DNA of 64,000 nt. It comes from an uncultured Lentisphaerota bacterium. Its GTDB lineage: Bacteria; Verrucomicrobiota; Kiritimatiellia; CAIQIC01. Both the position numbers and the translations under genes were made by a program. Below, in pieces: positions 3,529 to 54,689 of the stretch (position 1 is the stretch's first letter; each line of letters opens with the position of its first letter). The DNA lies in contig CAITZM010000134.1 in the NCBI GenBank assembly GCA_903896925.1, positions 33,765-97,764 on the forward strand, read 5' to 3'. Under the pieces are notes generated by a model, which saw only the letters and a program-made list of their open reading frames with translations, did no database searches and was not told the DNA's origin.

Positions 3529-3628
3529 GGCAACAACTCCTGCGTTTTAAGCGCTCATTCCGGCTTTATTACCCAATCCTACGACTTGATATTCCGCCCG
3601 CGACCGGCCACTTTCAAGTGACTTTTCT

Positions 3629-4231: not shown

Positions 4232-4246
4232 GGGACTTGCTCCGGC

Positions 4247-29092: not shown

Positions 29093-32000
29093 ATGGGCAA
29101 AAACATTCCATTTGTACATCTGCATTTCCACACGGAATACAGCCTGCTGGACAGCGCCTGCAAGGTGAAGAAGGTGATGAAGCGCGCCGTGGAGCTCGAG
29201 CAGAACACGCTGGCGATCACCGACCACGGCAACCTCTATGGCGCCGTCGATTTCTACAAGGAAGCCAAGGGTGCTGGTCTCAAGCCGATCCTCGGCTGCG
29301 AAGTCTATGTGGCCGTCGGCGACATGCACGACCGGAAGAGTATCGAGGGTTCCACCAAGCAACCGACGAACCATCTGGTGCTGCTGGCGGAGAACGAACA
29401 GGGCTGGGCAAACCTGATCCGGCTGGTGTCCATGGCGCACCTGGAGGGCTTCTACTACAAGCCGCGCATCGACAAGGAACTGCTCGCCAAATATTCCAAG
29501 GGCCTGATCGGCCTGTCGAGCTGCCTCAAGGGCGAGCCGGCGGAACTGTGCGCGGCAGGGGATATTGCGGGGGCGAAGCGGGCGGCCGGGCAATACGCGG
29601 AGATCCTCGGCAAGGACAACTACTTCATCGAGCTGCAGAACCACGGCCTGCCGGAGCAGCTCAAGGCGAACGTCGGCCTGCGCGAGGTGGCCAAGGCCCT
29701 GCACCTCCCGCTGATCTGCACGAACGACGTGCACTACATCCAGCAGGAGCACCACGAGGCGCACGCGGTCCTGCTCTGCCTCCAGACGCAGAGCAAGCTG
29801 AGCGATCCCGGCCGGATGCACTATCACGGCGACCAGTTCTACATGAAAAGCGGCGAGGAAATGCAGGCGCTCTTCCCCGGCGAGCCGGAGCTGCTCGCAC
29901 GCACGGTCGAGATCGGCCAGCGCTGCAACGTGGACCTGCGGCTCGGCAAGGAAACCCATTTCCCGATCTACATCACGCCGGACGGCAGCACGCAGAAGGA
30001 TTTCATCGTGCAGGTGGCGCACGCCGGCCTGCGCAAGCGCTACAACATGGCCGACTGCCTGCATCCCGCCAGCGAGCTCGAGCGGCAGGTCATGGACCGG
30101 TTCAACTACGAGCTGGGCGTCATCGAGCGCCTGAAGTTCATCAACTATTTTCTCGTGGTGTGGGATTTCATCCATCACGCCAAGCTGCAGGGCATCCCGG
30201 TGGGGCCGGGCCGCGGCTCGGGCGCCGGCAGCCTCATCGCCTACGCGATCGGCATCACGAACATCGAGCCGCTGCGGTTCAACCTGCTCTTCGAGCGCTT
30301 CCTGAACCCGGAGCGCATCAGCTGGCCGGACTTCGACATCGATTTCTGCCAGCGGCGGCGCGGCGAGGTGATCACCTATGTCCGCGAGAAGTACGGCGAG
30401 GAGAACGTCGCGCAGATCGTCACGTTCGGCACGCTCGGGCCCAAGACGGTGATCCGCGACATCGGGCGCGTGCTGGAAATCCCGCTCGGCGAGTGCGACC
30501 GGCTCGCGAAGATGGTGCCCGACGACCCGAAGATCGACGACCTCGAAAAGGCGCTGGCCCAGAATCCCGAGTTCAAGCAGATCTGCGAGCGCGACGAGAA
30601 CGCCAAGCGCATCATGAAGTATGCGCGCGTGCTCGAAGGCCTCGCGCGCAATCCCGGCGTCCACGCCGCCGGCGTCGTCATCGGCGAGAAGCCGCTGGTC
30701 GAAATCCTGCCGCTCGCGCGCAGCAAGGACAAGGAAATCATCACGCAGTTCGAAATGTCGCCGCTCGAGGCGACCGGCCTGATGAAGATGGACTTCCTCG
30801 GCCTCAAGACGCTGACGGTGATCCAGGACGCGCTGGACTACGTCGAGCGCAACCACGGCGTGAAGCTGGACATGGACACGCTGCCGCTGGACGACGCCAA
30901 GACCTACGAGCTGCTCGGCCGCGGCGACGCCGTCGGCGTGTTCCAGCTGGAATCCGGCGGCATGCGCGACCTGCTCCGGCGCATGGCCTCGAACCGGATC
31001 GAGGACCTGATCGCCCTGATCGCGCTCTACCGCCCCGGCCCGATGCAGTTCATCGACAGCTTCATCAACCGCAAGAACGGCCTCGAGGCCATCGAGTATC
31101 CGCACCCGCTGCTCGAATCCATCTTGAAGGAGACCTACGGCATCATCGTCTACCAGGAGCAGGTCCAGCAGGCCGCTGTGACGCTGGCGGGGTTTTCGCT
31201 GGGCCAGGGCGATATTTTGCGGCGCGCCATGGGCAAGAAGAAAAAAGAAGAGATGGACAAGATGCGCGACAAGTTCGTCGAAGGCTGCATCGCGACCAAC
31301 AAGATTCCCCGCGCGCAGGCCTCCGCGATCTTCGACACGATCGACAAGTTCGCCTCCTACGGCTTCAACAAGTCGCACAGCGCCGCCTACGCGATCGTCT
31401 CCTACCAGACGGCCTACCTGAAGGCGCACTATCCGGTGGAGTTCATGTCCGCCCTGATGACGAGTGAAATCGGCAATCCCGACAAGCTGACGAACTTCAT
31501 CAACGAGGCGCGCGCGATGGAGGTCGAGATCCTGCCGCCGAGCGTCAACGAGAGCGACCTGCACTTCACGCCGACCGGCCAGAAGATCCGCTTCGGCCTC
31601 GCGGGCATCAAGAACGTCGGCGAGGGCGCGGTCGAGGAGATCGTCCGCATCCGCAAGGAAGGCGGCCCCTTCAAGGGCCTGGTGGATTTCTGCAACCGCG
31701 TGGACGGCCAGCGCTCGAACAAGAAGGTGCTCGAAAGCCTCGTCCGCTGCGGCGCGTTCGATTTCACCGGCCAGCTGCGCGGCCGGCTCTTCGGCGGCAT
31801 CGACCAGGCGATGGGCGGCGCCGCGTCCGAGCAGCGCGACCGCCGCGCCGGCCAGATATCCCTGTTCGGGATGTTGGGCGGCGACGCCACCCAGAGCGCC
31901 GTTGATGCCGACCTGCCTGCCGGCGAAACCTGGACCGAGAGCCAGCTGCTGGCCGGCGAGAAGGAGCTGCTCGGTTTCTTCATCTCCGGCCATCCGCTGA

Positions 32001-32647
32001 CCGAGTTTCAGTGGATCCTCCAGCGCTTCGACCAGACCGGCGGCGGCCCGCTCGAGGAGGCCGCGCCCGGCACGGTCGTCCGCGTCGGCGGGCTGGTGGC
32101 CAGCTTCCAGAAACGCTTCACCAAGAAAACTCAGGAGCCGATGGGCATTTTCCGGCTCGAACGCCTCGACGGCGCGCTCGAGGCCGTCGCGTTCCCGTCC
32201 ACCTTCACCACCTACGGCGTCTATCTCAAGGACGACGCGCCGGTGCTCGTCTGCGGCCAGCTCGGCCGCTCCGAACTGCCCGGCCAGCAATCGCAGCAGC
32301 TCAAGCTGACCGTGCAGGAAGTCTATCCGCTCGGCGATGTGCCGCGCCTGTTCACCGAGACCGTGAGCGTCCACCTGCCCGAGCAGTTGGCGGACCCCGC
32401 GCGCGTGCAGCAGCTCAAGGCGATCATCCGCCAGCATCCCGGCCAGACCCCGCTGCACATTGTCATCATGCTGGGCAGTGGTGAGAAAATCTACGTCAAC
32501 GCCCATAGCGCGATGCACGTCCTGCCCAGCAAGGCGCTCATCCATGCCATCGAGCAGTTGCTGGGCGAGGGCAGCCTCTACATCGCCCCCCGCGCCGTCA
32601 CCTGCCTCAAGCCTCCTCCGCCCCGCCGCTGGGAGCGCAAGGACTGA
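29093..32647 (+). CDS. dnaE: DNA polymerase III subunit alpha
   Basis: FVHLHFHTEYSLLD PHP domain; GPGRGSGAGS; PDFDIDF; KMDFLGL; YGFNKSH. Confidence 0.98.
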   Translation: MGKNIPFVHLHFHTEYSLLDSACKVKKVMKRAVELEQNTLAITDHGNLYGAVDFYKEAKGAGLKPILGCEVYVAVGDMHDRKSIEGSTKQPTNHLVLLAENEQGWANLIRLVSMAHLEGFYYKPRIDKELLAKYSKGLIGLSSCLKGEPAELCAAGDIAGAKRAAGQYAEILGKDNYFIELQNHGLPEQLKANVGLREVAKALHLPLICTNDVHYIQQEHHEAHAVLLCLQTQSKLSDPGRMHYHGDQFYMKSGEEMQALFPGEPELLARTVEIGQRCNVDLRLGKETHFPIYITPDGSTQKDFIVQVAHAGLRKRYNMADCLHPASELERQVMDRFNYELGVIERLKFINYFLVVWDFIHHAKLQGIPVGPGRGSGAGSLIAYAIGITNIEPLRFNLLFERFLNPERISWPDFDIDFCQRRRGEVITYVREKYGEENVAQIVTFGTLGPKTVIRDIGRVLEIPLGECDRLAKMVPDDPKIDDLEKALAQNPEFKQICERDENAKRIMKYARVLEGLARNPGVHAAGVVIGEKPLVEILPLARSKDKEIITQFEMSPLEATGLMKMDFLGLKTLTVIQDALDYVERNHGVKLDMDTLPLDDAKTYELLGRGDAVGVFQLESGGMRDLLRRMASNRIEDLIALIALYRPGPMQFIDSFINRKNGLEAIEYPHPLLESILKETYGIIVYQEQVQQAAVTLAGFSLGQGDILRRAMGKKKKEEMDKMRDKFVEGCIATNKIPRAQASAIFDTIDKFASYGFNKSHSAAYAIVSYQTAYLKAHYPVEFMSALMTSEIGNPDKLTNFINEARAMEVEILPPSVNESDLHFTPTGQKIRFGLAGIKNVGEGAVEEIVRIRKEGGPFKGLVDFCNRVDGQRSNKKVLESLVRCGAFDFTGQLRGRLFGGIDQAMGGAASEQRDRRAGQISLFGMLGGDATQSAVDADLPAGETWTESQLLAGEKELLGFFISGHPLTEFQWILQRFDQTGGGPLEEAAPGTVVRVGGLVASFQKRFTKKTQEPMGIFRLERLDGALEAVAFPSTFTTYGVYLKDDAPVLVCGQLGRSELPGQQSQQLKLTVQEVYPLGDVPRLFTETVSVHLPEQLADPARVQQLKAIIRQHPGQTPLHIVIMLGSGEKIYVNAHSAMHVLPSKALIHAIEQLLGEGSLYIAPRAVTCLKPPPPRRWERKD

Positions 32648-32817: not shown

Positions 32818-34491
32818 ATGGATATCCAAAGCCAACAACAGTACCGGCAAGGCCTGGGCTCGCGGGTGGATGCACTTGAGGCCGCACTCCAGTCGCTGGG
32901 CCGCGATGTGACGGCGGAGAAAAACATCCGGCTCATGGCCAAGTCGCTGTGCACCTCCAGCGTCCCCCAAGGGCTCCAGACCGTTTTTCAGGCTGCGCGC
33001 AGCGTGGAGGTGGCGGCGCCGGCGCAGTTGCCGGAGCTGACGCGCGCCTTCATCGCCATCCTGCGGCAGGCACTGACGGACTCACTGGACGGCCCTCACG
33101 ACGAGGTGGCCGAGTCCCTCCATACACGCCAGCACGGCACTCCCGAGAACACGCGCCATGATGCGCTCACCGGCCTGCTCAACCGCACGGCGTTCTGCGA
33201 GGCGTACGAGCACGCCCTCGGCCTGAGCGCGCGCTCCCGCAAGCCGGTTGTGCTGGCGTTGCTCGAAATTGACCGCCTCGCCGATATCGAGAGGGGCCAT
33301 GGTCAGCCTGCAGTTGAACTCGCCCTGCAGTGCGTGGGCGCGGTGCTGGCGAGTTCCTCGCGGGCGACCGACCTCGTCGCGCGCTGGAGCGCGTTGCAAT
33401 TCGTCCTCCTGTTCCCCGGCGAAGACCAGGCCGGCGGCCGGCGCGCCATCGAGAAGGCGTTGAGCCTGCTGCAGGATCGGCTGCCCGTGTTGCCCGACGG
33501 CCAGCCACTTCGCCTCACCCTCTCCGCCGGCCTCAGAGAGCTGGACCTGCCGGCACCGCTGGAAACGGCTGTGGTGCAGGCGGACCGCTTCCTCTATCTG
33601 GCCAAATCCCGTGGCGGCAATCAGGTGGTCAGCGCCGAAACGACCCTGCCGCCGCGCAAGGACAACGTGCTGGTGGCCACCCGCGAGGACATCGCCGGCA
33701 TCTTCAAACACATTCTCGAAATCAACGGATTCGAGGTGGTGCTCACCCGCCCCTCCAGCGCCGCAGCGCTCGACGTACTCGCCCACGGCCATTTCCGGCT
33801 GATCATCCTTGAGGAAGGCGATGACGGCGAGAGCGGCTACGAGCTGCTGCGCAAGCTCCGCGAAAATCAGCACTGTCACCGCATCCCGATGGTCATGCTT
33901 GTCTCCAACGAACAGGCCGCGGCCCGCGCGCTCGATCTCGGTGCGAACGACTATATGCTCAAGCCGCTTTCGCCGGTCGTCTTCATCGCCCGCGTCCGCC
34001 ACCTGCTGACGCGCGGCGTGCCGGCGGCCCGCCCGCAGCACAAGTTGCTGCTGGTGGATGGCGACCTGGCGGCGTTGATCGTCGCCGGCACCGCGTTGCA
34101 CCAAAGCGGCAGCTTCCGCATCCGCTTCGCCCGCACCGGCGCCGACGCCCTCCGCCGTGCGATGGAAGTCGCGCCCGATGCCGTCTGCGCGGCCGCCCGC
34201 CTGCCGGACATGAGCGGGTCGGAACTCCTCCTGCGCTTGCAGTCCGTGCTGCAGCCCGCCCGCGCCGCCGGCGTGCTGACGGCGCCCGTCGATCAGGCCG
34301 CCGATGTGGCGCGTCTGAGCAGCACGACCCTCCGCGGCGTACTCACCACGCCTTTCAACCTGCAGACGCTGGCCGGCGAGTTGACCCGCCTGTTGCAAAT
34401 CAAGGCGAACCCCGCGCCGCCCTCTGCAGAGGATCACCTGTCATTCAACAGCGAACTGCAGCGGTTGCTGAGCGCTGTCGCTTCGGACTGA
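32818..34491 (+). CDS. Degenerate GGDEF protein with two pseudo-receiver domains
   Basis: HDALTGLLNR; RATD I-site; WSALQF instead of GGDEF; REC folds with E or A at the phospho-Asp position. Confidence 0.8.
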   Translation: MDIQSQQQYRQGLGSRVDALEAALQSLGRDVTAEKNIRLMAKSLCTSSVPQGLQTVFQAARSVEVAAPAQLPELTRAFIAILRQALTDSLDGPHDEVAESLHTRQHGTPENTRHDALTGLLNRTAFCEAYEHALGLSARSRKPVVLALLEIDRLADIERGHGQPAVELALQCVGAVLASSSRATDLVARWSALQFVLLFPGEDQAGGRRAIEKALSLLQDRLPVLPDGQPLRLTLSAGLRELDLPAPLETAVVQADRFLYLAKSRGGNQVVSAETTLPPRKDNVLVATREDIAGIFKHILEINGFEVVLTRPSSAAALDVLAHGHFRLIILEEGDDGESGYELLRKLRENQHCHRIPMVMLVSNEQAAARALDLGANDYMLKPLSPVVFIARVRHLLTRGVPAARPQHKLLLVDGDLAALIVAGTALHQSGSFRIRFARTGADALRRAMEVAPDAVCAAARLPDMSGSELLLRLQSVLQPARAAGVLTAPVDQAADVARLSSTTLRGVLTTPFNLQTLAGELTRLLQIKANPAPPSAEDHLSFNSELQRLLSAVASD

Positions 34492-34588: not shown

Positions 34589-35293
34589 TCAAGCCATGGA
34601 AAGGGACGGGTGGCGGGCGTCAGGCGCTGGCGCGCCAGATGTGCTGTCCACGAGTCCGGCGCCGATGGCGTAGCGGGTGAGACTGGCGGTGTCGAAGATG
34701 TTGAGCTTGCGCGTGAGGGCCCCGCGGTGTTTTTCGACCGTGCGGATGCTGAGGCCCAGTTCAGGGGCGATCTGTTTGTTCGGCAGGCCCTCGGCGACGA
34801 GTTGGAGCACCTCGACCTCGCGCTCCGTCAGGCAGGCCTCGCGATAGACGCAGGTGCCGCAGTGGTCGGCGCACTGGTGCGGAAGGCGGCAGGCAATGCT
34901 GGGGCTGAAGGCTTTTCTTCCCTGATGCACGTCGCGGATGGCGGCGCACACGGTGCGCGCCGACGCTTGCTTGAGCAGATAGCCGGCGATGCCCAGCGCG
35001 GTCGCCTGCTGGATGTAGCGGTCCTCGCTGCGTGCGGTGAGAATCAGGATCCGGGTGGCGGGACAAAGTTGGCGGATCTGCCGGGTGGCTTCGACCCCAT
35101 TGAGCCGCGGCATCAAGATGTCCATGACGAGCACGGCGGGCAGGAGTTGCTGGGCCAGAGCCACGGCTTCGCGGCCGTTGGCGGCTTCGCCGATGACCTC
35201 GATATCGGTTTCGGCGGCGAGCAGCGCGCGCAGCCCTTCGCGGACGACGGTGTGGTCGTCCGCCAGCAGGACGGTGATGCGGTTCGTAGCCAT
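34589..35293 (-). CDS. NarL/FixJ-family response regulator (REC + LuxR HTH)
   Basis: VLLADDHTVVREGL, MDILMP, LTEREVEVL...TVEKHR. Confidence 0.92.
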   Translation of the reverse strand: MATNRITVLLADDHTVVREGLRALLAAETDIEVIGEAANGREAVALAQQLLPAVLVMDILMPRLNGVEATRQIRQLCPATRILILTARSEDRYIQQATALGIAGYLLKQASARTVCAAIRDVHQGRKAFSPSIACRLPHQCADHCGTCVYREACLTEREVEVLQLVAEGLPNKQIAPELGLSIRTVEKHRGALTRKLNIFDTASLTRYAIGAGLVDSTSGAPAPDARHPSLSMA

Positions 35294-35453
35294 GTTTCCG
35301 GCGGTTTCAGCTCGTGTGGCAACGTCTGGCGCCGCCGGGGAGTCTAGACCGGTTCTCGCCGATGTCAAACCGGCGGGTGGTGGTAGTTCCCCTCATGGCG
35401 GAGCGCGGCGGGTGCCGTAGACTCAGATCGTTATGAAACGACAGGAAGAAAAA

Positions 35454-36647
35454 ATGAAACCAAAAACACCGAGCGGGTTACCTGTCTCGCGGGAAGAAAT
35501 CCGGCCTATCTATCCGGTCCACGGGCTGCCCGCTTCGCAGGAGCTGGCCCTGAAGACCCGCCCGGCGCACGGGCTGCATGTCCTGATCACCGGCGGGGCG
35601 GGGTTCATCGGCTCGAACCTGGCCGAGTATCACCTGCACAAAGGCGACAAGGTGCATGTGGTGGATGACCTCAGCACCGGGGCGCTCAGCAATGTCGAGG
35701 CGTTCCTGAGCCATCCGCATTTCCGGTTCAGTCAGGCCGACATCCTGGTTTGGGACGACCTGAACAAAGCCGTCACCTGGGCCGACCGGATTTATCACAT
35801 GGCGGCCGTGGTGGGTGTCCACAAGGTGCTGGCCGAGCCGATTCATTGTCTGTCGACCAACATCGCGGGCTGCGAGCGGGTGCTGCGCGCGGCCAGTGCC
35901 AACGGGTGGAAGCCCCAGATTGTGATCCCCTCGACCGCGGAGGTCTACGGCGAGGCGCACACCAGCGGTGGGGCGCTGCCGTCGGAGGCGGTCGATTTTA
36001 CCGGGTTCCGGGAGGATGCGGAACTGGTGGTGGGCTCCACGGCGATCAAACGGTGGAACTATCCCGTCAGCAAGATCACCAACGAGGCGATGGGGCTCTC
36101 CTATGGGCAGGCCTTCGGCATGGAGGTCCTCGTCGCCCGGCTGTTCAACAGCGTCGGCCCGCGGCAGACCGGGCGCTATGGGATGGTGCTGCCGCGCTTC
36201 GTGAAGCAGGCCGTGGCGGGCGAGCCGATCACGGTCTACGGCGACGGCACGCAGACGCGCAGCTTCTGCGATGTGCGGGACACCGTGGCGCTGTTGGACG
36301 CCTTGGCGAGCGAGTTGGGCAACGCAGGGGAGATCATTAACGTGGGCAATAACCGGGAGATCAGCATTCACGCGCTGGCCCGGCTGGTCAAGGAACTGGC
36401 GCAGAGCGCCTCGCCCATCGCCTTTGTTCCGTACCGTGTGGCTTACGGCGAAGGGAATGTGGAAACCTACCGGCGCAAGCCCGATCTCACCAAGCTCCTG
36501 GCGCATACGGCGTACCGGCATCAGTGGACGCTGGAGGCGACGGTGCAGGATCTGATCGAACGGGAACGGGCCAACATGGAAGACGCCAGGCTGGTCGCGT
36601 GGCGGCCGGACGATGCGCGCGTCTTCCAGGAGTGCATGGTGTCATGA
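35454..36647 (+). CDS. NAD-dependent nucleotide-sugar epimerase/dehydratase
   Basis: ITGGAGFIGS, YPVSK, RLFNSVGPRQTGRYGMVLPRF; alternative start 35433. Confidence 0.9.
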   Translation: MKPKTPSGLPVSREEIRPIYPVHGLPASQELALKTRPAHGLHVLITGGAGFIGSNLAEYHLHKGDKVHVVDDLSTGALSNVEAFLSHPHFRFSQADILVWDDLNKAVTWADRIYHMAAVVGVHKVLAEPIHCLSTNIAGCERVLRAASANGWKPQIVIPSTAEVYGEAHTSGGALPSEAVDFTGFREDAELVVGSTAIKRWNYPVSKITNEAMGLSYGQAFGMEVLVARLFNSVGPRQTGRYGMVLPRFVKQAVAGEPITVYGDGTQTRSFCDVRDTVALLDALASELGNAGEIINVGNNREISIHALARLVKELAQSASPIAFVPYRVAYGEGNVETYRRKPDLTKLLAHTAYRHQWTLEATVQDLIERERANMEDARLVAWRPDDARVFQECMVS

Positions 36648-37465
36648 AAACTATCCATGGAAAAACCTTGGGGCTGGCGCTGCTCGGGCTGTCCGGCATG
36701 GCGTGGGCCGACGACGTGCGGACCTACCGGGAGATCACCGGCTGGTCGCCGTATTTCGGCGGCGAGGTCGGTTCAACCTACGTGACGCCGAGCTATGAAT
36801 ACAGCAGCATTCACCTGAACCAGAACCAGGTGGACTGGCACGTGGCGGATGTGCAGGTCGCCCATCCATTGGCAGGCGCGACGCCCTACCTCGACCTGGC
36901 GTATTATGAACGCGATCACGCGGGCGACTTCGCGCTGACGGCGGGCTCCTACTTCAGGCCGGGCAAGGATATCCTGCAGGTGGAAGTCGGCGCCGGGCTG
37001 AACCCCGACTTCATCTATCAGTTCCAATCCACCGTGGAATATCAATACAGGCTGGCGAACAACTTCTACGGCAAGGTGCGCGCCCGCTATATGCATTATC
37101 CCACCGCGGGCGATGTGTGGATCGGGTCGCCGGCCGGCCTGGTCTATTATTTCGGCGATCACTACGTGACGGCCGACTACGACTTCTCCTCGACCGCCGG
37201 GCGCGGCACGGCGCAGTGGGGTTCGGTCAAGGCCGACTTCACACTCAATCCGCGCTGGGGTTTCTATGCCGGCGCGGCCGCGGGCGAACGGCTGTTCGAC
37301 ACGGCCGACCTGCCGGCCTCCCGGGAGAACGGCTATATCCTGTTTACCGGCGTCCGTTTCAGGCTGCTGAAAGACGTCCAGCTCACCACCGGGTGTTCCT
37401 ATGCCGAAGAGCAACCGCATTTCATCAAGAGGAGTATCGAAGCCTCGCTTTCGATAAAGTTATGA
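36644..37465 (+). CDS. YaiO-family outer-membrane beta-barrel protein
   Basis: Signal peptide ending AWA; alternating aromatic beta strands (GLVYYFGDHY); C-terminal amphipathic strand; ATGA overlap. Confidence 0.65.
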   Translation: MKTIHGKTLGLALLGLSGMAWADDVRTYREITGWSPYFGGEVGSTYVTPSYEYSSIHLNQNQVDWHVADVQVAHPLAGATPYLDLAYYERDHAGDFALTAGSYFRPGKDILQVEVGAGLNPDFIYQFQSTVEYQYRLANNFYGKVRARYMHYPTAGDVWIGSPAGLVYYFGDHYVTADYDFSSTAGRGTAQWGSVKADFTLNPRWGFYAGAAAGERLFDTADLPASRENGYILFTGVRFRLLKDVQLTTGCSYAEEQPHFIKRSIEASLSIKL

Positions 37466-38736
37466 ACTCAAACTATGCCGAGACGGTCTGGCTGCTGAAC
37501 GCCGTGCTGGTCGCCTTCGTCGTGGTGCTGGCGGCGGGCGGGCTGCTTCATTCCTTGCTCGCCGTCGCCACACAGCGCCGGCGCCAGCCGGGCGACAAGG
37601 CGCTGACCGAGCTGCTCGCCCAGCTGGCGGGGAAGACGGCGCTGACCGTGGCGCACGATCTCGTCTGGCACTGCAGCGAGGTCCCCACCGGGCGGTGGAT
37701 CTGGTTGATCAACCGCCACGAGACGTTCGTCCCCCGGGGTGTATGGCCGCAACTGGAGGCGTACCTGTTCACCACGCCGGTGGTCGCCGCGATCGAACAG
37801 CAGGCCGCCCATGGCCAACGCAAGTGGCGGCGCATCGAGGCGATGAAGTGCCTGGGCCATCTGCACACGCCGGGCGCGCTGACGCTGCTCGAGCAGGCGC
37901 TGGCGGAAAACGATGAGGATCTCCGCTACTTCGCGCTCCTGTCGCTGGCCCACATGCGCACGCCGCCGGCGGCGCGCGTGCTGCTGGGCCAGCTCCGGTG
38001 CAGCGGCGCCAACGGTCATAAAATCGTGGCGCTGCTGGAGGCGTTCCCGGGCGAGGTCGTGCCGGACGTGTACGCCGCCCTGTCCAAGAGCGAGGCCCCC
38101 GTGCGGTTCTGGCTCCTCAAGCTGCTGGCGCGTTTCAAGGTGGCCGTGGAGCTGCCGGCCGTCGTCGGCTTCACCCGTGACCTCTCCCCGGATGTGCGCG
38201 CGGTCGCGTGCGAATGCCTGGGCTTTACGCGCCGCGCCGAGGCCCTCGCGCCGCTCGCGGTCTGCCTGCAGGACCCGACCTGGTACGTGCGCCTGCAGGC
38301 GGTGCGGGCCTTGGCGCGCATCGAAGGCTCGGCCTGCCTGCCGCTGCTGGCGGAGCTGATGCTCACCGAAACCTCCCTGCTGGTGCAGGAGAGCATCAAG
38401 GACGTGATGCTGCGCGACCCGGCCGGCGCGCTGCCCGCGACGGAACGCTTCCTCGACCACGAAAACAGGACGGTGAAGGCGTGGTGTGTCAATGCGCTGG
38501 TGGATTCGAACAGCGTGGTGAAGCTGCTGACGGAATGCCTGTCCGAGTTGAGCGAGGTGCGCGAACACGCGCGGCTCGTCTTGGAAAAATTGATCGAGTC
38601 GCGCCTCCATTTCGGCCTCAAGCAGGCGCTGGACCAGCTGCAGGCGGGTGCCCGCCGCCGGGTCCTGGCCCTGGTGGCCGGTGTGGATGGCGTGCTGGCC
38701 GAACGCCTGGAGCCGCAACGGGTGAAAGGAGCTTGA
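37462..38736 (+). CDS. Membrane-anchored HEAT-repeat protein
   Basis: N-terminal TM; repeated D..VR..A..ALG blocks (LQDPTWYVRLQAVRAL). Confidence 0.85.
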   Translation: MNSNYAETVWLLNAVLVAFVVVLAAGGLLHSLLAVATQRRRQPGDKALTELLAQLAGKTALTVAHDLVWHCSEVPTGRWIWLINRHETFVPRGVWPQLEAYLFTTPVVAAIEQQAAHGQRKWRRIEAMKCLGHLHTPGALTLLEQALAENDEDLRYFALLSLAHMRTPPAARVLLGQLRCSGANGHKIVALLEAFPGEVVPDVYAALSKSEAPVRFWLLKLLARFKVAVELPAVVGFTRDLSPDVRAVACECLGFTRRAEALAPLAVCLQDPTWYVRLQAVRALARIEGSACLPLLAELMLTETSLLVQESIKDVMLRDPAGALPATERFLDHENRTVKAWCVNALVDSNSVVKLLTECLSELSEVREHARLVLEKLIESRLHFGLKQALDQLQAGARRRVLALVAGVDGVLAERLEPQRVKGA

Positions 38737-38737
38737 T

Positions 38738-40192
38738 ATGGAAACGCTGACCCATCACATGTTCGTCGTGGCCTTCTTTGTGTTTCTGGGCTACTACGTT
38801 GTTTTGGCTGTGTATTACCTCATCCTGGGCCTGGTCGGCTTCGCGGTGGGGCACCAGCGCGGCCGGGAGGATGCCGGTGAGGACTATCGCTTGCTGGCCG
38901 CCTCCAGTTTCACGCTGCCCGTGAGCGTCATCCTGCCGGCGCACAACGAGGAGGCGTGGATCGCCGACTCGCTGCAGAGCCTGCTGAACCTCAACTATCC
39001 CGAATATGAACTGGTGATCGTGGACGACGGTTCCACGGACCGGACCCTGGAGATCTTGAAGGAGCGGCTGGAACTGGTGGCGGTCCACAATCCCTATACC
39101 GACCTGTTCCAGTCCGGCCGGATTCACGGGCTGTTCAAGTCGGTGCGGCACCCGCACGTCACCGTGCTGAGCAAGGCGACGGGGCAGAAAAAGGCCGGCG
39201 CCGTCAATGCCGGGCTGAACCTCGCGCGCTACAAGTATGTCTGCGTCATGGATGCGGACACGGTCCTGGAGCCCGATGCGCTGATGCGCGTCATGGCGCA
39301 GGTCGAGAAGGATCCCGAGCGGATCATCGGCGTGGGCAGCTACTTCGGCCTGGTGAACGGGTTCGAGGTCGAGAACGGACGCGTTGTCGGGAAGAACTTC
39401 CTGCGGTCGCCGCTGGTGGCCTATCAGGACCTGGAGTATCTGCGCAGCTTCATCGGCAACCGCCTCTCGTGGAGCCGGTGGAATGCGATGCCCAACATCG
39501 CGGGCGGCTTCGGCGTCTGGCGCCGGGATGTGCTGCTGGAGATGGGCGGCTTCAGCGCTGAGGTCAGCTGCGAGGATATCGAACTGACCTTCCGTGCCCA
39601 CGAGTACATCGCCCTGCACCGGGAAGCCGGTTACAAGATTGTGATGCTGCCCTATGTGGTGGGCTGGACCGAAGGCCCGCACACCGTCCGCAACCTGATC
39701 GGCCAGCGGAACCGGTGGCATCGCGCCACCATCGAGACGACGTGGAGATTCCGGCACATGCTGTGCAATCCCCGGTACGGGACGTTCGGCTTCGTCACGG
39801 TGCCCTACTTCTTCCTCTACGAGGTCCTCGGTGTCTTCTTTGAGCTCGGCAGCATCGCCGTGACAATCCTCGGTTTCCTCACCGGCGTGTTCGACCTGAA
39901 ACTGCTGGTCGGTTTCCTGGTGTTTATGACCCTGTTCCAGGCGTTCACCTCGCTGCTGCCGCTGGTGGCTTTCCACCGCGAGCAGAAGCTGTTCCGGCCG
40001 GTGGAATTCTGTTACCTGACGTTCCTGAGCCTGGTCGAGTTCGCCGCCTACCGCTGGATCATCGTGTTCTCGCGGATCACAGGCACGCTGGACTTCTTCC
40101 GCGGCGTCCGCACCTACGCAGGCGTCCCCCGCGAGCGTAAGAATGCCACCGGGACACCCGCACCCGCGGCCCTGCAACCGGCCAAGGCCTGA
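38738..40192 (+). CDS. Processive GT2 glycosyltransferase (PgaC/IcaA/YaiP-like)
   Basis: PAHNEE, VDDGSTD, KAGAVNAG, DADT, CEDIE, QRNRW; N- and C-terminal TM helices. Confidence 0.92.
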   Translation: METLTHHMFVVAFFVFLGYYVVLAVYYLILGLVGFAVGHQRGREDAGEDYRLLAASSFTLPVSVILPAHNEEAWIADSLQSLLNLNYPEYELVIVDDGSTDRTLEILKERLELVAVHNPYTDLFQSGRIHGLFKSVRHPHVTVLSKATGQKKAGAVNAGLNLARYKYVCVMDADTVLEPDALMRVMAQVEKDPERIIGVGSYFGLVNGFEVENGRVVGKNFLRSPLVAYQDLEYLRSFIGNRLSWSRWNAMPNIAGGFGVWRRDVLLEMGGFSAEVSCEDIELTFRAHEYIALHREAGYKIVMLPYVVGWTEGPHTVRNLIGQRNRWHRATIETTWRFRHMLCNPRYGTFGFVTVPYFFLYEVLGVFFELGSIAVTILGFLTGVFDLKLLVGFLVFMTLFQAFTSLLPLVAFHREQKLFRPVEFCYLTFLSLVEFAAYRWIIVFSRITGTLDFFRGVRTYAGVPRERKNATGTPAPAALQPAKA

Positions 40193-40212
40193 ACCTGAAT
40201 GGGTGACGCACC

Positions 40213-41106
40213 ATGACCTCCACCGAAATCCTGGCGACGCAACGGCTCTACGACGAGAGCGAAGTCGGGCGGCTGGAGCAGATCCTGTCCGGCCGCGCGC
40301 CTGCGCTGGACCAGGTCTCGGCCTATGCCGGGGACCGGCCCCTGACGGACGAGGAGCGGGCCTTCTTCGATGCCCTGCAACAGAAGCGGGGGGCGCAGTT
40401 TTACTGCGACCTGCTCTATGCGGTCACCCACCAGGTGTTTGCACCCGCCACGGCAGTCGACCTGTGGAGCGCGATCCTGCGCCATAAATACGAGCTGTCG
40501 GATCTGCTCAAGCGGAACATCCGCATCACCGTCGCGGCCCTCGACTATCTCGGCAACCTCAAGGGCGAATTGCCCTCGGCCACCGTGATTGCCGAGGCGC
40601 GCATGACCGACATCGTGCGCCTGACGCAGCGCGACGGCCTCACGGGGCTGTTCAACCATGCCAGCTTTTTCCTGAAGCTCGACGGGGAACTGCGCTGCTA
40701 TGAAAAATGCCAGCGGCTCGTCACGCTCATGATGATCGACGTCGATAACTTCAAGGGCGTCAACGACCGCTTTGGACATCGCGCCGGCGACCGGGTGCTG
40801 GTGGAACTGGGCGCGAGCATCGAGGGCGTCGTGCGGGCCACCGATATCTGCTGCCGATACGGCGGGGAAGAATTCGCCGTCATCCTGCCCGCCACCGGCG
40901 CTGTGGAGGGCGGGCTGCTGGCCGACCGCCTGCAAGCGCAACTGGCGTGCGATCAGCCGGGAGGATATGACGTAACCGTCAGCATCGGTGTGGCCGTGTG
41001 CGGCGAACAGGCCCGCACCTCCCGCGCGCTTGTGGAAAAAGCCGATGCCGTCCTTTACGAGGCCAAGCGGCTGGGCAAGCATCGCACCGTGGTCAATCCC
41101 CGCTGA
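40213..41106 (+). CDS. Diguanylate cyclase with uncharacterised helical N-terminal domain
   Basis: DGLTGLFN, DVDNFKGVNDRFGH..GD, RATD I-site, RYGGEEF. Confidence 0.93.
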   Translation: MTSTEILATQRLYDESEVGRLEQILSGRAPALDQVSAYAGDRPLTDEERAFFDALQQKRGAQFYCDLLYAVTHQVFAPATAVDLWSAILRHKYELSDLLKRNIRITVAALDYLGNLKGELPSATVIAEARMTDIVRLTQRDGLTGLFNHASFFLKLDGELRCYEKCQRLVTLMMIDVDNFKGVNDRFGHRAGDRVLVELGASIEGVVRATDICCRYGGEEFAVILPATGAVEGGLLADRLQAQLACDQPGGYDVTVSIGVAVCGEQARTSRALVEKADAVLYEAKRLGKHRTVVNPR

Positions 41107-41374: not shown

Positions 41375-41403
41375 CCCGCCCGCCCAGGGAACGGGCGGGT
41401 TTT
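41375..41403 (+). terminator. Putative intrinsic terminator
   Basis: cccgccc...gggcggg followed by tttt. Confidence 0.4.
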
Positions 41404-41565
41404 GTCATGCTTGCTCCAAGTCAATAAAAGATAGAGGAAAACTCTTTTTGTATTATCCCGGGAGCGGGCTAGTTTCGTCCGCTTCTCGTGATCAGCGACA
41501 AGTAGCGTCTGAGCCTGCCGGGCTTGCATGTTTCGGGTGCGCACAAACCGGCCAAGGAACAGACC

Positions 41566-43464
41566 ATGAAGACAAGCGGAAACCGAGGGTTGCTGGGGTT
41601 GATCATGGCGGCGCTGCTTGGAGGTCATGCTGAAGTTCAGGCAGCCTACACCAATCTGCACGCATTTGCCGGCGGCGCGGGCGATGGCGCGGCAGCCGTC
41701 GGCGCGCTAACGCTGTCCGGCACGACGCTGTATGGCCTGACGTTCGGCGGTGGCGCCAGCAACGAAGGCGTGGTGTTCCAGATGCAGGCTGATGGCACGG
41801 GTTATACCAACCTGCACGCGTTCGCCGGCGGTGCGGGCGATGGTGCGGGCTCCTACGGTTCGCTGACGCTGTCCGGCACGACGCTGTATGGCCTGACGTT
41901 CGGCGGCGGCGCCAGCAACAAAGGCGTGGTGTTCCAGCTGCAGGCCGATGGTACGGGCTATTCCAACCTGCATGCGTTCGCCGGCGGCGCGGGCGATGGC
42001 GCGGCAGCCGTCGGCGCGCTAACGCTGTCCGGCACGACGCTGTATGGCCTGACCTCCGCCGGCGGCGTCAGCAACAAAGGCGTAGTATTCCAGCTGCAGG
42101 CTGATGGTACGGGCTATACCAATCTGCACGCGTTCGCGGACGGCGCAGGCGATGGCGCGGTATCCGTCTGCGCGCTGACGCTGTCCGGCACGGAGCTTTA
42201 TGGCATGACGTTTGGTGGCGGTGCCAGCAGCAAAGGCGTGGTGTTCCGGCTTCAGGCTGGTGGTACGGGCTATACCAACCTGCACGCGTTCGCCGGTGGC
42301 GCGGGCGATGGCGCACACCCCTATATTGGCACGGCGCTGACGCTGTCCGGCACGACGTTGTATGGCCTGACGTTCATGGGCGGCGCCAATAACAAAGGCG
42401 TGGTGTTCCAGCTGCAGGCTGATGGCACGGGCTATACCAACCTGCATGAGTTCGCCGGTGGCGTGGGCGATGGCGCGTTACCCTCCGGCACACTGACCTT
42501 GTCCGGCACGACACTGTATGGCATGACGTCCGCCGGCGGCGCCAGCAACGGCGGCGTGGTGTTCCAGCTGCAGGTTGATGGTTCGGGATATACCAATCTG
42601 CATGAGTTCGCCGGCGGCGCGGGCAATGGTGCAGCACCCTTCGGCGCGCTGACGCTGTCCGGCACGACGCTGTATGGCATGACGTCCGCCGGCGGCGCCA
42701 GCAACAAAGGCGTGGTGTTCGCGTTGACGGTCCCCACTACGGCGAACTTCACGCTGCGGCCTGCGCAGCTCTTTTTCCAGCATGCCGACGGCCGGTTGGC
42801 GAGCTGGCTGCTGGCCACAAACGGGACCTACCAATCCGGACGCCCCTTGGGTTCGGCGGGCAATTGGCAGTTGATGACGGCCGGCGATGTGGATGGCGAT
42901 GGCCTCAGCGACCTGCTCTTCCAGAATCCCGCTGGCGACCTCGCCTGCTGGCTGCTCGACACCAACGGTGCTGTCCGCCATGTCATCAACTGGGGCCAGG
43001 TCGGTGCCTGGAGACTGCGTGCGGCGGCCGACTATGCTGGCGAAGGTCACGCCCAGCTCTTCTTCCAGAATCCCGCGGGCGACCTCGCCTTCTGGCGCAT
43101 CAGCACCAATGGTATTTTTCAAAGCTCGGAACTCCTGGCGCACGCCGGCGGCTGGCAGCTCCGCGCGGCCATGCCACACGCCCGCGGTGTCGGGGCCGAT
43201 CTCTGCTGGCAGACCGCCGAGGGGCAGGTCGCCATCTGGCGGCAGGCATACGGCGGCGCCATCACCGTGCAGTTCCTCGGCGGCACCGGGGGCTGGGTTC
43301 TGAGCGGCGCGGTCGATGTGGATGGCGATGGTGAGGGCGACCTGCTCTGGCAGAACGGCGACGGCAGGATCGGGGGCTGGCTCCTAGCTAGCAACGGTAT
43401 CCCACGCGCCGCCAGTTCCTGGGGCGACGCAGGAGTCTGGAAGCTCAAAGCCGCCGGCCGCTGA
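41566..43464 (+). CDS. Secreted Gloeo/Verruco (GloVer)-type tandem-repeat protein with C-terminal FG-GAP-like domain
   Basis: Signal peptide; 7x YTNLHxFAGG.GDG....LTLSGTTLYG.T.GG...GVVF; GDVDGDG..DLLxQN repeats; AAGGA RBS. Confidence 0.88.
   Translation: MKTSGNRGLLGLIMAALLGGHAEVQAAYTNLHAFAGGAGDGAAAVGALTLSGTTLYGLTFGGGASNEGVVFQMQADGTGYTNLHAFAGGAGDGAGSYGSLTLSGTTLYGLTFGGGASNKGVVFQLQADGTGYSNLHAFAGGAGDGAAAVGALTLSGTTLYGLTSAGGVSNKGVVFQLQADGTGYTNLHAFADGAGDGAVSVCALTLSGTELYGMTFGGGASSKGVVFRLQAGGTGYTNLHAFAGGAGDGAHPYIGTALTLSGTTLYGLTFMGGANNKGVVFQLQADGTGYTNLHEFAGGVGDGALPSGTLTLSGTTLYGMTSAGGASNGGVVFQLQVDGSGYTNLHEFAGGAGNGAAPFGALTLSGTTLYGMTSAGGASNKGVVFALTVPTTANFTLRPAQLFFQHADGRLASWLLATNGTYQSGRPLGSAGNWQLMTAGDVDGDGLSDLLFQNPAGDLACWLLDTNGAVRHVINWGQVGAWRLRAAADYAGEGHAQLFFQNPAGDLAFWRISTNGIFQSSELLAHAGGWQLRAAMPHARGVGADLCWQTAEGQVAIWRQAYGGAITVQFLGGTGGWVLSGAVDVDGDGEGDLLWQNGDGRIGGWLLASNGIPRAASSWGDAGVWKLKAAGR
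41647..42720 (+). repeat. Seven coding tandem repeats of 156 bp (one unit 162 bp)
   Basis: Units start 41647, 41803, 41959, 42115, 42271, 42433, 42589. Confidence 0.9.
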
Positions 43465-51309: not shown

Positions 51310-54300
51310 TCACGCCGGGGGCAGGGGGCGGGCGTCGAGGATGGCGTGGATGGTCTGCAGCAGTTCGGCGGCGGGGTAGGGCTTTTGCAGGAAGGGGAAC
51401 TTCTTCTCGGCGATGATGTGCCAGCGCGAGCGTTCGTCGGTGTAGCCGCTGCACAGGAGCACGGCGAGGCCGGGCTTCTGCCGCAGGAACTGTTCGACGG
51501 TCGTGATGCCGTTCTGGTCGGGCAGGACCACATCGCTGAAGACGAGATCGAAGCGGCCTTGCTCCCGGGCAAACAGGGCCTGGCCCTCGGCGGCGGTGCC
51601 GGCGGCCTGCACGCTATAGCCGGCGGTCTGCAGGGCGCGCAGGGAGAGGCCGCGGATTTCGGGCTCGTCCTCGATCAGCAGGATGCGCTCGCCGTGGCCG
51701 CGGGGCGGCGCGGCGCGGGGCGCGGCGGGCTCCGCGACGTCCTCGGCGCCGGCGTAGGCGGGCAGGTAGAGCTTGAAGGCCGTGCCGTGGCCCAGCTCGC
51801 TGAAGACATTGACCCAGCCGTTGTGTTGCTGGGCGATGCCGTAGATCACCGAGAGGCCGAGGCCCGTGCCCTTGCCCGGACCCTTGGTGCTGAAGAACGG
51901 CTCGAAGATGTGCGGCAGCACGTCGGGCGCGATGCCGGTGCCGGTGTCGGCCAAGGAGAGGCGGACGAACTGGCCGGGGCGCCCGTCGGCGATGAAACGA
52001 ACGTCCTCCGGGGTCAGCGTCACCCGGGCGGTGGTGAGCGTGATCCGGCCCCCGTGCGGCATGGCGTCGCGCGCGTTGAGGGCGAGGTTCATGATGATCT
52101 GCTCGATCTGCCCGGCGTCGGCTTTGATGCGCGGGAGGTCGGCGGCCAGCTCGGTCGCCAGCCGGATGTCCTCGCCCAGCAGGCGGTGCAGCATCTTGTG
52201 CATGTTGCTGACCACGCTGTTGAGGTCGAGCACGGTGGGTGTGATCATCTGGCGGCGGCTGAAGGCGAGCAGCTGGCGGGTCAGCCCGGCCGCGCGTTCG
52301 GCCGCCTTCTGGATCTCCAGCAGATCGCCGTGGTGCCGCGTCGCCGGCGGTGTATCCGCGAGCAGGATGTCTGTGAAGCCGAAGATGGACTGCAGGATGT
52401 TGTTGAAGTCGTGCGCCACGCCGCCGGCGAGCTGGCCCACCGCCTCCATCTTCTGGGCCTGCTGCACCTGCGCCTCCAGCCGCTTGCGCTCGGTGACATT
52501 GCGCAGCACGCCCTCGGTGGCCACCAGCCGGTCGCCGTCATAGACGGCAATCCAGTGGTCCTCCAGGCATTTGAGCGACCCGTCCTTGCAGCGCCACCAG
52601 GTTTCCCAGCGGTCGGCCTGGCTGACCGGCTGGAACGCTTGCAAGGCGTCCATGAACCGCTCTTGCTCGGTGAACTTTCCATCCTGGATCACCTGGGCGA
52701 GGAACGCCCGGCGTCCGCCCATCCGTTGGACATCGGCGAGCGCATAGCCCAGCAGCAGCTCGAACGCCGGGCTGAGGTAGAGGAACTCGCGCGTGACGGC
52801 GTCCACGCTGTAGAGCACGTCGTCGATGTTGGCGGCGATGCGATGGAACTTTTCCTCGCTCGCGATCAGGGCCTGCTCGGCCTGCTTGCGCTCGGTGATG
52901 TCCACGGCCACGCCCATGATCGCGCGCTCCGTGGCGCCCGGCGGCACGAACGCCATCTTCGTCGTCTGCAGCCAGTGCACGCTCCCGTCCGCGAAGGTGA
53001 TCGGTTCCGCCGGGATGAACTTGGTCTGTCCGCTGGCGATCACCTCCTGGTCGTCCCTGAGGAAGGCGGCGGTCTGTTCCTGGTTGCGGGAGAATTCCAG
53101 CTCGAGATGGCCGACCAGTTCCTGCGGCTCCTTGCCATAGCAGACCGAGCCGGCGCGGTTGACGAAGAGGTAGCGGCCCTCGCGGTCCTTGGCGAAGATG
53201 TGGTGCGGCACCAGGTCGATGACCTCGCGCAGCAGGCGCTCGTTTTCGCGTAGCGCCTGATCGGTCTTGCGGCGTTCGGTGATATCGCGGCAGATCGCGA
53301 CCAGACCGGTGATCTTCCCCGTGTGGTCGCGCAAGGGCATCTTGATCGTCAAAAACCACCGCCGCGCGCCGGCGTGGTCCTGCACCAGTTCCTCGCGATT
53401 GATGACCGCCTGGCCCGTGCGCATAACGCGCAGATCGTCCTCATAATAACCGCGGGCCAGTTCCTCCGGGTGCAGATCCAGTACCGTCTTGCCCGCCAGC
53501 GCTGCCTCGTCGGGTACACCCATCAACGCTACGTGGGCGGTGTTGCTGATGATGAACCGCGCAGCCATGTCCTTGGTGAAGATCAGGTCCGGCAGGCTGT
53601 TGATCAGCGTCCGCAGCAACTGGCGTTCCTCGTCCAGCGCCTCCTCCGCCCGTTTGCGTTCGGTGATGTCGTGCGACCAGATCACCAGTTGCTGCATCCG
53701 GCCGTCTGCGCCGAGGATCGGCTTGCTGCGCGACTCGATCCACAGCCAGGTCCCGTTCCGGCAACGGATGCGATGCTCCAGCAGGGTCGTCTGTCCCGCC
53801 CGGTTCGCCGCCCGCGCCTGCTGGATTGCCGGCACGTCCTCCGGATGCAAGCGCGCATCCCACGGGCTGTTTTGCAGCTCCTCCGGTGTCCAGCCGGTCC
53901 TGCGGTAATACGAGGGACTGATGAAGAGCCGGCGCTCCTGCGCGTCGTGGACCGACACGAAATCCTCGGTATGCTCCGCCAGCAGGCGGTAGTGCGCCTC
54001 GCTCTCGCGCAGCGCGGCCGCCGCCTGCTCCTGCCCGGCCACGGTCTTCTCCAGCCGCCGGCGCACCCGGTGTAGCGCTTCGACCAATACCAGCACGGTC
54101 AGGTTCGTCACGACGAACATGGCCATCATGATGGCATCAGAAGTGGCCAGGGACCCGAAATGGAAGCCGGACGGAAGGAAAAAGATGACACTCAACGTAA
54201 CCATGACCGCCGACAGCAATCCCGGCCCCAGTCCGCCAAAATAGGCGCACAGCAGGACAGGCAGTGTGAATAAATTCAGCATCAACCGGCTGCCGCATAC

Positions 54301-54420: not shown

Positions 54421-54689
54421 AAAAAACCTCAAGTCCAACATCACCCCTCGCGGAACTTTACTCGCCCACTGGCTCCGGTACAAGGCCGGGGAAAAAGCCA
54501 CGTCCGGTTGGCGGAGCCCGTCCGCGGTGTCGCTTTATGTCGTGCACAGCTCGCGCGGCCGGATCCGGGTGGTGTGTCGGTCCCGGGAATCAAGGCGACG
54601 GATGAGGCGGGACTCGGGCGGTGACGGTGGTCCCTGGTATCCGGTGCGGTGCGGCTGCCTCCCAGACCCGCCCTGTCAGTTGCCAACCT

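Follow-up and report, generated by a model that had tools for sequence, protein, structure and literature searches.

A membrane-anchored HEAT-repeat protein paired with a processive glycosyltransferase in a c-di-GMP-linked, probable exopolysaccharide operon of an uncultured Lentisphaerota bacterium

Five tightly coupled genes in a 64,000-nucleotide stretch of DNA from an uncultured Lentisphaerota bacterium (assembly GCA_903896925.1, contig CAITZM010000134.1, positions 33,765 to 97,764 of the forward strand; this whole stretch is called the window) form an operon that is a clade-specific variant, wired to cyclic diguanylate (c-di-GMP), of a widespread and uncharacterised synthase-dependent system. 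The conserved core of that system is a pair of adjacent genes, one for a membrane-anchored HEAT-repeat protein and the other for a PgaC-like membrane glycosyltransferase of family 2 (GT2), to which an outer-membrane beta-barrel of the YaiO family may be added. The variant in the window is marked by a barrel devoid of tetratricopeptide repeats (TPRs), by a short-chain dehydrogenase/reductase (SDR) of its own and by its own diguanylate cyclase. Altogether, the operon probably encodes a compact synthase-dependent exopolysaccharide machine in which the HEAT protein serves the GT2 as a partner subunit. Synthase-dependent exopolysaccharide systems, such as those of cellulose, poly-N-acetylglucosamine (PNAG), Pel, alginate and Nfr, shape biofilms and are defined by their accessory subunits and by their sensing of c-di-GMP. 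A cytoplasmic HEAT solenoid on a membrane anchor is a type of synthase accessory subunit that was not found in the literature searched (full text, subscription papers not covered), where neither a HEAT protein as partner to a polysaccharide synthase nor a part for YaiO in polysaccharide export was found described. YaiO and YaiP appear there mainly as PCR markers, YaiO being matched also by a review of outer-membrane protein folding, and the mentions of HEAT beside glycosyltransferase or biofilm terms that were checked proved unrelated (XopN; beta-catenin). For xagABC of Xanthomonas, weighed as a possible equivalent already on record, the protein families are not given in the parts of PMC3826837 and PMC4643136 drawn on here.

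At the level of gene order, the pair was followed through 16 loci, namely the window, two close relatives, six further loci of the phylum and seven plasmid loci. Taken as a HEAT protein of 330-440 aa that carries an anchor helix at its N-terminus and whose gene immediately precedes that of a PgaC-like GT2, it is present in the window, where the two genes are separated by 1 bp (position 38737), in both close relatives, in all six phylum loci and in all seven plasmid loci. The synteny survey that had been proposed in the initial annotation thus came out in favour of the pairing. In the phylum sample, a GT2 match at E<=1e-60 was obtained in 7 of 401 genomes, the own genome included, and when all open reading frames (ORFs) are listed the HEAT gene lies directly upstream of the GT2 gene in each of the other six. 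A TPR protein, with or without a YaiO domain, is encoded upstream of the pair in five of these six loci; the sixth, G018, has the order HEAT-GT2-(TPR+YaiO)-(GAF-HD-GYP). In G314 the pair is preceded by a gene for a single-domain receiver (REC) and followed by a PilZ-like gene. Beyond the phylum, a tblastn search of PLSDB with the GT2 retrieved 52 plasmid records at E<=1e-20, and in all seven of those inspected a gene annotated as 'HEAT repeat domain-containing protein' stands directly upstream of the GT2 gene (Table 1). Because the pair is present in a haloarchaeon and in a Firmicute, which have no outer membrane, it is independent of the YaiO barrel.

The HEAT gene is therefore found beside the synthase gene in metagenome-assembled genomes (MAGs) related to Verrucomicrobiota, in Alphaproteobacteria, Deinococcota, Bacteroidota and Bacillota and in a haloarchaeon, and its function can be tested directly in cultured carriers (Mesorhizobium ciceri, Deinococcus radiophilus, Bacteroides finegoldii and Haloarcula). 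The REC-(TPR/YaiO)-HEAT-GT2 operons of cultured bacteria and of the haloarchaeon share with the window the HEAT-then-GT2 order, often with overlapping genes, and a GT2 that is 31-35% identical; those of the diderms (M. ciceri, Erythrobacter aureus, D. radiophilus and Devosia) also encode a YaiO or TPR outer-membrane protein, as the window does. They differ from it in having a single-domain receiver, together with Hpt or histidine-kinase genes, instead of a cyclase, in the fusion of their barrels to TPRs, in the absence of the SDR and in their shorter HEAT proteins (327-390 aa). The annotation of these operons is only generic.

Closer to the window, the operon is conserved as a whole. Among 41 related genomes, a full-length match to the HEAT protein was confined to the own genome and to L011, a genome of the same genus with 76% identity, which keeps the same five-gene order with an equivalent of the cyclase and a divergent NarL-type gene. 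L012, a metagenome contig with a GC content of 54-58% as against 65%, keeps the SDR-barrel-HEAT-GT2 order with a HEAT protein that is 47% identical; the divergent NarL-type gene is not present there, and a PAS-PAS-GGDEF-REC protein and an HD-GYP protein, both non-orthologous, are encoded in place of the cyclase. The operon is real, its gene order being more than chance and kept in L011 and L012. In the window, the SDR/barrel and barrel/HEAT junctions are ATGA start/stop overlaps that can be read directly in the sequence, and the coordinates leave a gap of 20 bp (40193-40212) between the GT2 and cyclase genes. In agreement with the initial annotation, the five coupled ORFs, the two overlaps and the 1- and 20-bp gaps were all borne out, as was the divergent NarL regulator with its Response_reg and GerE domains. 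PilZ, MshEN, TPR and deacetylase families have no match in the five operon proteins (Pfam, E<=0.01), so that the supposed absence of PilZ and MshEN domains and of a deacetylase was also upheld.

The role of the HEAT protein as co-synthase or regulator, proposed in the initial annotation, is likely in the light of this synteny and of the predicted complex of the two proteins. In an AlphaFold2 (AF2) model with a predicted local distance difference test (pLDDT) score of 85, the HEAT protein consists of a long N-terminal helix (residues 4-38) followed by an all-alpha solenoid, and an invariant RRR stands directly after the anchor helix. All 12 HEAT proteins checked have a strong N-terminal hydrophobic helix with more lysine and arginine after it than before it, and because the positive charges lie on the C-terminal side of the anchor the repeats are predicted to be cytoplasmic. 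When HEAT and GT2 were modelled together, with alignments of 12 and 25 rows respectively, the interface score ipSAE reached 0.79, 0.79 and 0.78, compared with 0.00 for the best of three controls; the runs share at least 84% of their contacts, and the pLDDT of the partners is at least 79. The mark applied to this score is reached by 116 of 157 solved complexes and by 2 of 215 mismatched pairs, rates that are rough because the alignments were custom-made here. The model places the anchor helix of HEAT (2-35) against GT2 helices 385-432 and 10-28, with the lowest expected errors (1.0-1.3 A) between GT2 392-410 and HEAT 9-24, and HEAT residues 87, 122-129, 153-163, 184-194 and 220-224 contact the juxtamembrane segment 43-59 of the GT2 and a loop of its catalytic domain (190-193). 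The HEAT protein is accordingly predicted to be a cytoplasmic, membrane-anchored partner of the synthase. The membrane anchoring supposed by the initial annotation stands in this prediction, but the idea that the protein replaces a periplasmic TPR scaffold does not: its repeats are predicted to be cytoplasmic, the pair is also present in monoderms and in an archaeon, and most diderm relatives encode a TPR(+YaiO) protein and a HEAT protein side by side.

As for the extent of the HEAT family, a word-index search gave 13 close clusters, whereas an exhaustive search with a profile of the HEAT alignment showed that the full-length family is much larger, with 352 representatives at E<=1e-30, one of them an Omnitrophica 'hypothetical/HEAT repeat' protein. 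Among the best 150 profile matches there were 148 new proteins, of which 54 have 380-520 aa, 62 are giant and 32 are shorter; 50 of the 54 carry an N-terminal hydrophobic helix, and the 62 giant multi-repeat proteins are generic repeat matches. A Foldseek search with the HEAT model yielded generic HEAT/ARM solenoids alone (PP2A-A, importins, alphaRep) and no functional lead.

These scaffold-like matches bear on an alternative in which the HEAT protein is merely an adaptor that recruits regulators, the cyclase here and a phosphorylated receiver elsewhere, or else a brake on the synthase, the GT2 being able to work alone. HEAT solenoids are typical protein-binding scaffolds, and the regulators beside the pair do vary, with REC genes adjoining it in 5 of the 16 loci (M. 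ciceri, E. aureus, Haloarcula, Devosia and G314) and GGDEF or HD-GYP genes in the window clade and in G018. However, the extensive intramembrane helix packing in the model would resemble that of a stable subunit and not that of a transient regulator, and the adjacency is kept where no neighbouring regulator gene is seen (D. radiophilus, B. finegoldii and Planococcus maritimus). An adaptor or a brake of this kind is thus considered unlikely, and a fixed partner subunit is preferred.

The synthase itself carries the signs of a processive enzyme. Its hydrophobic segments comprise an N-terminal helix (4-40) and the region 350-412, and D97, D172xD174, E279-D280 and Q323-R324-x-R326-W327 are invariant across 25 aligned GT2 homologues, the most distant at 33% identity. 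The D, DxD, ED and QRxRW motifs are hallmarks of processive membrane synthases, and their location in a GT-A domain flanked by transmembrane helices places the protein among the membrane GT2s of the BcsA/PgaC/HAS/NodC type. A word-index search found 950 relatives, with 51-61% identity in Omnitrophota. The best NCBIfam match is PgaC_IcaA (TIGR03937), at 109.2 bits against a cut-off of 422.3, and homologues are labelled by JGI as 'cellulose synthase/poly-beta-1,6-N-acetylglucosamine synthase-like'. Both facts would suit an offshoot of a system already described, with PNAG (Pga/Ica-type) the most plausible choice; poly-beta-1,6-GlcNAc would then be the polymer, and the HEAT protein would stand in for PgaD/IcaD. 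Nevertheless, the GT2 falls far under the equivalog cut-off and matches BcsA and hyaluronan synthase (HAS) in the Protein Data Bank only weakly over their full length (about 33-34 bits), the operon is without a deacetylase, a PgaA-type TPR porin and PgaD, and a dedicated SDR resembling UDP-xylose synthase (UXS) makes no sense for a polymer built from UDP-GlcNAc. A disguised PNAG system is therefore regarded as highly improbable.

Membership of the established systems was rejected in each case: that of PgaABCD on the score of the GT2 and for want of a deacetylase, TPR or PgaA-barrel family at E<=0.01; that of Nfr because the GT2 has no MshEN and the barrel no TPR, the cyclase reaching 82.5 against a cut-off of 500 for DgcJ (NF040885); and that of Bcs because CelA (TIGR03030) is matched at 48.8 against a cut-off of 699 and no PilZ or BcsB family is found. 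The operon had been described as a distinct minimal system, and it indeed fits none of Pga, Nfr and Bcs gene for gene; what has to be given up is its singularity, as it is the form that a very widespread HEAT-GT2 module takes in one clade. With PgaABCD of E. coli and IcaADBC of staphylococci it shares a PgaC-like GT2 comparable in size and topology, a membrane partner that has its own gene and is predicted to pack against the transmembrane helices and, in the case of PgaABCD, an outer-membrane barrel encoded in the same operon. In those systems, however, the partner is a small two-helix protein, in contrast to the 424-aa HEAT solenoid found here, and the operon of the window has no deacetylase, a TPR-less YaiO barrel and an SDR and a cyclase of its own. 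NfrB senses c-di-GMP by a C-terminal MshEN domain, NfrA carries TPRs, and Nfr is not known to have a HEAT protein. The NfrA/NfrB/YbcH/DgcJ system of E. coli nonetheless combines, like the window, a GT2, an outer-membrane protein, a dedicated local cyclase and an enzyme converting a sugar nucleotide; its MshEN, its TPRs and its DgcJ-type cyclase are missing from the window operon.

The second gene of the operon encodes the barrel, whose scores for TIGR04390 (46.1 bits, cut-off 32) and PF19413 (31.2 bits, cut-off 23.9) exceed the family cut-offs. Its N-terminus is a Sec-type signal ending ...GMAWA/DD, no TPR domain follows, and it is the sole YaiO-family match in the 7.2-Mb genome; a word-index search placed its relatives in 11 clusters. 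AF2, run on an 11-sequence alignment, models a barrel of 14 strands (pLDDT 78, predicted TM-score 0.71), and Foldseek matches this model exclusively to outer-membrane barrels at TMq 0.4-0.58, for example PelBC (9h80_M, 0.57) and BcsC (9b8h_A, 0.46). The original assignment of this gene to a beta-barrel without TPRs is hence confirmed, and the possibility that it is no barrel falls away. The namesake of the family belongs to the yaiS-yaiP-yaiX-yaiO genes of E. coli K-12, themselves uncharacterised, where a TPR-less YaiO of about 260 aa is likewise encoded beside a GT2 gene; that cluster differs in lacking a HEAT gene and in having a deacetylase and an acyltransferase disrupted by IS2. YaiP matches the GT2 of the window in the glycosyltransferase domain alone (29% identity over 226 residues), and the barrels are related at the profile level only.

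A small barrel of 14 predicted strands without a periplasmic domain might also be an unrelated porin, in which case the GT2 would produce either a glycolipid of the membrane or a glycan of the periplasm, as GT2s with flanking transmembrane helices are known to do for glycolipids and as weak NCBIfam matches to HpnI and MdoH could suggest. Against this stand the invariance of the QRxRW and ED motifs, the recurrence of YaiO-type barrels, mostly TPR-fused, next to the HEAT and GT2 genes in all three members of the window clade, in M. ciceri and in 5 of 6 phylum loci, the last counted by a Pfam YaiO match or a TPR protein, and the ATGA overlaps that translationally couple the barrel to its neighbours. 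Of all the alternatives this one is the hardest to credit, and the barrel is better regarded as part of the exopolysaccharide machine.

With regard to the sugar supply, the SDR had been introduced as a dedicated epimerase. It does belong to the extended SDRs, with a match to the Epimerase family, but epimerase activity is not established, given that its closest solved relative is UDP-glucuronate decarboxylase from humans (4lk3; 140 bits at E 7e-40, as against 110 bits for the next family). All NCBIfam equivalogs stay under their cut-offs (PRK11908, 96 vs 294). In SDRs of the UXS/ArnA type the residues T-(S)-E, YxxxK and the arginine of GPR have catalytic roles. Alignment with UXS shows that the T, E, Y, K and GPR arginine are kept, and STAEVYG, YxxSK and GPR are invariant in the homologues of L011 (84% identity) and L012 (68%). 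Judged by sequence, a decarboxylase is at least as likely as an epimerase; should the enzyme prove to synthesise UDP-xylose or a 4-keto-pentose, an uncommon polymer with pentose in it may result. At the N-terminus of the SDR, ~45 residues (35433-35570) are matched by nothing in L011 or L012, so that translation may really begin 3' of the two candidate ATGs, or else an N-terminal extension may be special to the window genome. A cryptic cluster of Sinorhizobium for an arabinose-containing polysaccharide under c-di-GMP control, uxs1-uxe-apsS-apsE-apsH, resembles the operon in having a UDP-xylose-synthase-type SDR as its first gene, a synthase gene and a divergent dedicated regulator (PMC12560781). 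It differs in that c-di-GMP acts there on transcription, via CuxR and MucR (PMC12560781), and a HEAT protein, a YaiO barrel and an operon-encoded cyclase are not mentioned in the parts of that paper drawn on here, which makes it a functional parallel by description (PMC12560781).

The last gene accounts for the c-di-GMP link. The presence of a dedicated cyclase in the operon, as initially annotated, was corroborated by its GGDEF match (130 bits); its GGEEF motif, at residue 217, and the I-site RATD (RxxD), five residues upstream, are both intact, and the TIGR00254 score of 151.6 bits lies well over the cut-off of 37.4, so that at the sequence level the protein has what an active cyclase demands. 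Its soluble N-terminal domain (1-135, ~135 residues) has neither a Pfam family match nor a usable match in the ESM Atlas. In L012, as noted above, enzymes that are not orthologous keep up the c-di-GMP connection of the clade, and this speaks for function, not for inheritance. The c-di-GMP linkage advanced in the initial annotation is accordingly conserved in the clade (window, L011 and L012), but it is lineage-specific, many relatives having a single-domain receiver gene instead. The closest precedent for the action of a cyclase on such a complex is Pga, in which c-di-GMP binds the PgaC-PgaD pair and control is exerted without a PilZ domain, and the window clade raises the question of how c-di-GMP is sensed without PilZ, MshEN or GIL domains.

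Several observations on possible receptors were made in passing. At 32818-34491 (+), just beyond the NarL gene, a 557-aa protein combines two receiver domains with a degenerate GGDEF (SALQF) and, five residues before it, an intact I-site (RxxD, here RATD), which is the architecture of an I-site c-di-GMP receptor; as receptor of the system this GGDEF-REC-REC protein was dropped because it is not kept beside the operon in L011. In G314 (locus L021), a 250-aa PilZ-like protein is encoded at 7215-7967 (-) directly downstream of the GT2 gene and is followed by an 878-aa protein without family; the former may serve that lineage as a separate receptor for c-di-GMP. In Erythrobacter, a gene annotated as PilZ is ~5 kb away from the HEAT-GT2 module.

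On this basis, the following mechanism can be proposed. The GT2 would polymerise a nucleotide sugar and thread the chain across the inner membrane, with the HEAT protein as its predicted fixed partner subunit, the helix of which would lie among the transmembrane helices of the GT2 and the solenoid on the cytoplasmic side. Such a role would be akin, by analogy, to that of PgaD/IcaD for PgaC/IcaA, with the addition of a large cytoplasmic platform. This platform would take regulatory input, and in many lineages the gene before the pair encodes a single-domain receiver; that the adjoining regulatory genes vary (REC in 5 of 16 loci, GGDEF/HD-GYP in 4 of 16) suggests that it is a receiving point for different inputs. 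In the clade of the window, the operon's own cyclase would make c-di-GMP acting locally on the HEAT-GT2 complex. The YaiO barrel would be the outer-membrane exit for the chain, the SDR would provide the system with an activated sugar of its own, perhaps a UDP-pentose or 4-keto-pentose derived from UDP-glucuronate, and the NarL-type regulator probably sets the transcription of the operon.

It is important to weigh this proposal against a number of observations that speak against it. Enzymes of c-di-GMP metabolism adjoin the module in just 4 of the 16 loci (the window, L011, L012 and G018), and the PilZ-like gene found in one more, G314, scores 21.8 bits, under the 22.5 cut-off. Since Pfam recognises no c-di-GMP receptor domain (PilZ, MshEN or GIL) in the five operon proteins, the point at which c-di-GMP acts can only be inferred. 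Distant HEAT proteins align with the window family mainly over generic repeats (hhalign probability 91-96%), and for this reason the case for their equivalence is made by position, size and anchor helix no less than by sequence. The score of the predicted complex is the model's own confidence, by which binding is supported, and the operon is known from sequence and models. The SDR has an alanine (STAEVYG) at the position of the serine in the T-S-E motif of UXS, and it is missing from the distant HEAT-GT2 loci. Finally, the barrels of PgaA, BcsC and PelB have 16 strands; that of the window, with 14 predicted strands and without a periplasmic TPR, leaves the passage of the chain through the periplasm unexplained. 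Even so, the exopolysaccharide machine with HEAT as partner of the GT2 remains the probable reading.

A more far-reaching combination of these elements is put forward only tentatively and must be called somewhat doubtful. According to it, anchored HEAT proteins would be an unrecognised, near-universal and obligate subunit of a large clade of PgaC-like processive GT2s in diderms, monoderms and haloarchaea, the solenoid would gate polymerisation via a phosphorylated receiver or, here, via c-di-GMP or the cyclase itself, and the product would contain pentose, being fed by the UXS-like SDR and released via a TPR-less 14-strand YaiO pore. If this were true, the HEAT domain would constitute a new kind of c-di-GMP-responsive element.

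The features of the operon region and the gene orders at the plasmid loci are collected in Table 1. The terminator-like hairpin between the cyclase gene and the next gene likely marks the end of the operon, although the count of terminator-like sites in the region is not above that in shuffled sequences, which makes the hairpin weak evidence. A promoter-like site on the minus strand by the NarL gene (35368-35341) is likewise not above chance, and the true start of this regulator is likely an ATG ~25 codons inside the listed TTG ORF.

Table 1. Features of the operon region in the window and gene order at the inspected plasmid loci
Locus	Feature or gene order	Position	Strand	Basis
Window	Extended SDR	35433 (or Met at 35454)-36647	+	Pfam Epimerase 155 bits
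Window	YaiO-family outer-membrane beta-barrel, 273 aa	36644-37465	+	TIGR04390, PF19413
Window	Membrane-anchored HEAT-repeat protein, 424 aa	37462-38736	+	HEAT_2 87 bits
Window	PgaC-like membrane GT2, 484 aa	38738-40192	+	Pfam Glycos_transf_2 104 bits
Window	GGDEF diguanylate cyclase	40213-41106	+	GGDEF 130 bits, TIGR00254 151.6 bits
Window	NarL/FixJ-type response regulator (REC + GerE HTH), divergent	34589-35368	-	Response_reg 89.9 bits, GerE 62.9 bits
Window	Terminator-like GC-rich hairpin then T-run, between cyclase gene and next gene	41378-41400	+	Site scan
Mesorhizobium ciceri pMESCI01	REC-YaiO barrel-HEAT-GT2, then Hpt			
Erythrobacter aureus	REC-TPR-HEAT-GT2			
Deinococcus radiophilus	TPR-HEAT-GT2			
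Devosia	REC-TPR-HEAT-GT2, then Hpt			
Bacteroides finegoldii	HEAT-GT2-hypothetical protein			
Planococcus maritimus plasmid (L032), Firmicute	HEAT-GT2	3270-5754		
Haloarcula halophila plasmid (L031), archaeon	REC-HEAT-GT2-GAF histidine kinase	2810-6938		

Some further observations concern the related loci. In G375 (locus L025, 7492-8919, +), a GT2 homologue encoded beside TPR and HEAT genes carries one in-frame TGA, which could reflect a pseudogene, a sequencing error or a recoding event. Apparent 'N-terminal extensions' of the GT2 in high-GC relatives were rejected as domains, their translation being an Arg/Pro-rich read-through. In L021, L023 and L024, all high-GC, this read-through lengthens the GT2 ORFs by 140-280 codons and masks the HEAT genes on the same strand, and automated annotation of high-GC MAGs may overlook the HEAT partner. 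BcsQ-type ATPases accompany cellulose synthases, and in L012 a receiver domain fused to a BcsQ/MinD-like ATPase is encoded at 3350-4624 (+), just upstream of the related operon, where it may act as another regulator or localiser of the system.

Around the operon of the window, the flanks of the region include dnaE (DNA polymerase III alpha) at 29093-32647 (+) and two genes for large PAS-rich hybrid histidine kinases, at 25422-28088 (+) and 51310-54501 (-). The NarL-type regulator could have either of these as its kinase, but nothing links them. Directly 3' of the terminator-like hairpin, and outside the conserved cluster in L011, the gene at 41524-43464 (+) encodes a secreted-looking protein of 646 aa that is composed of seven GloVer (TIGR03803) repeats followed by FG-GAP-like repeats.

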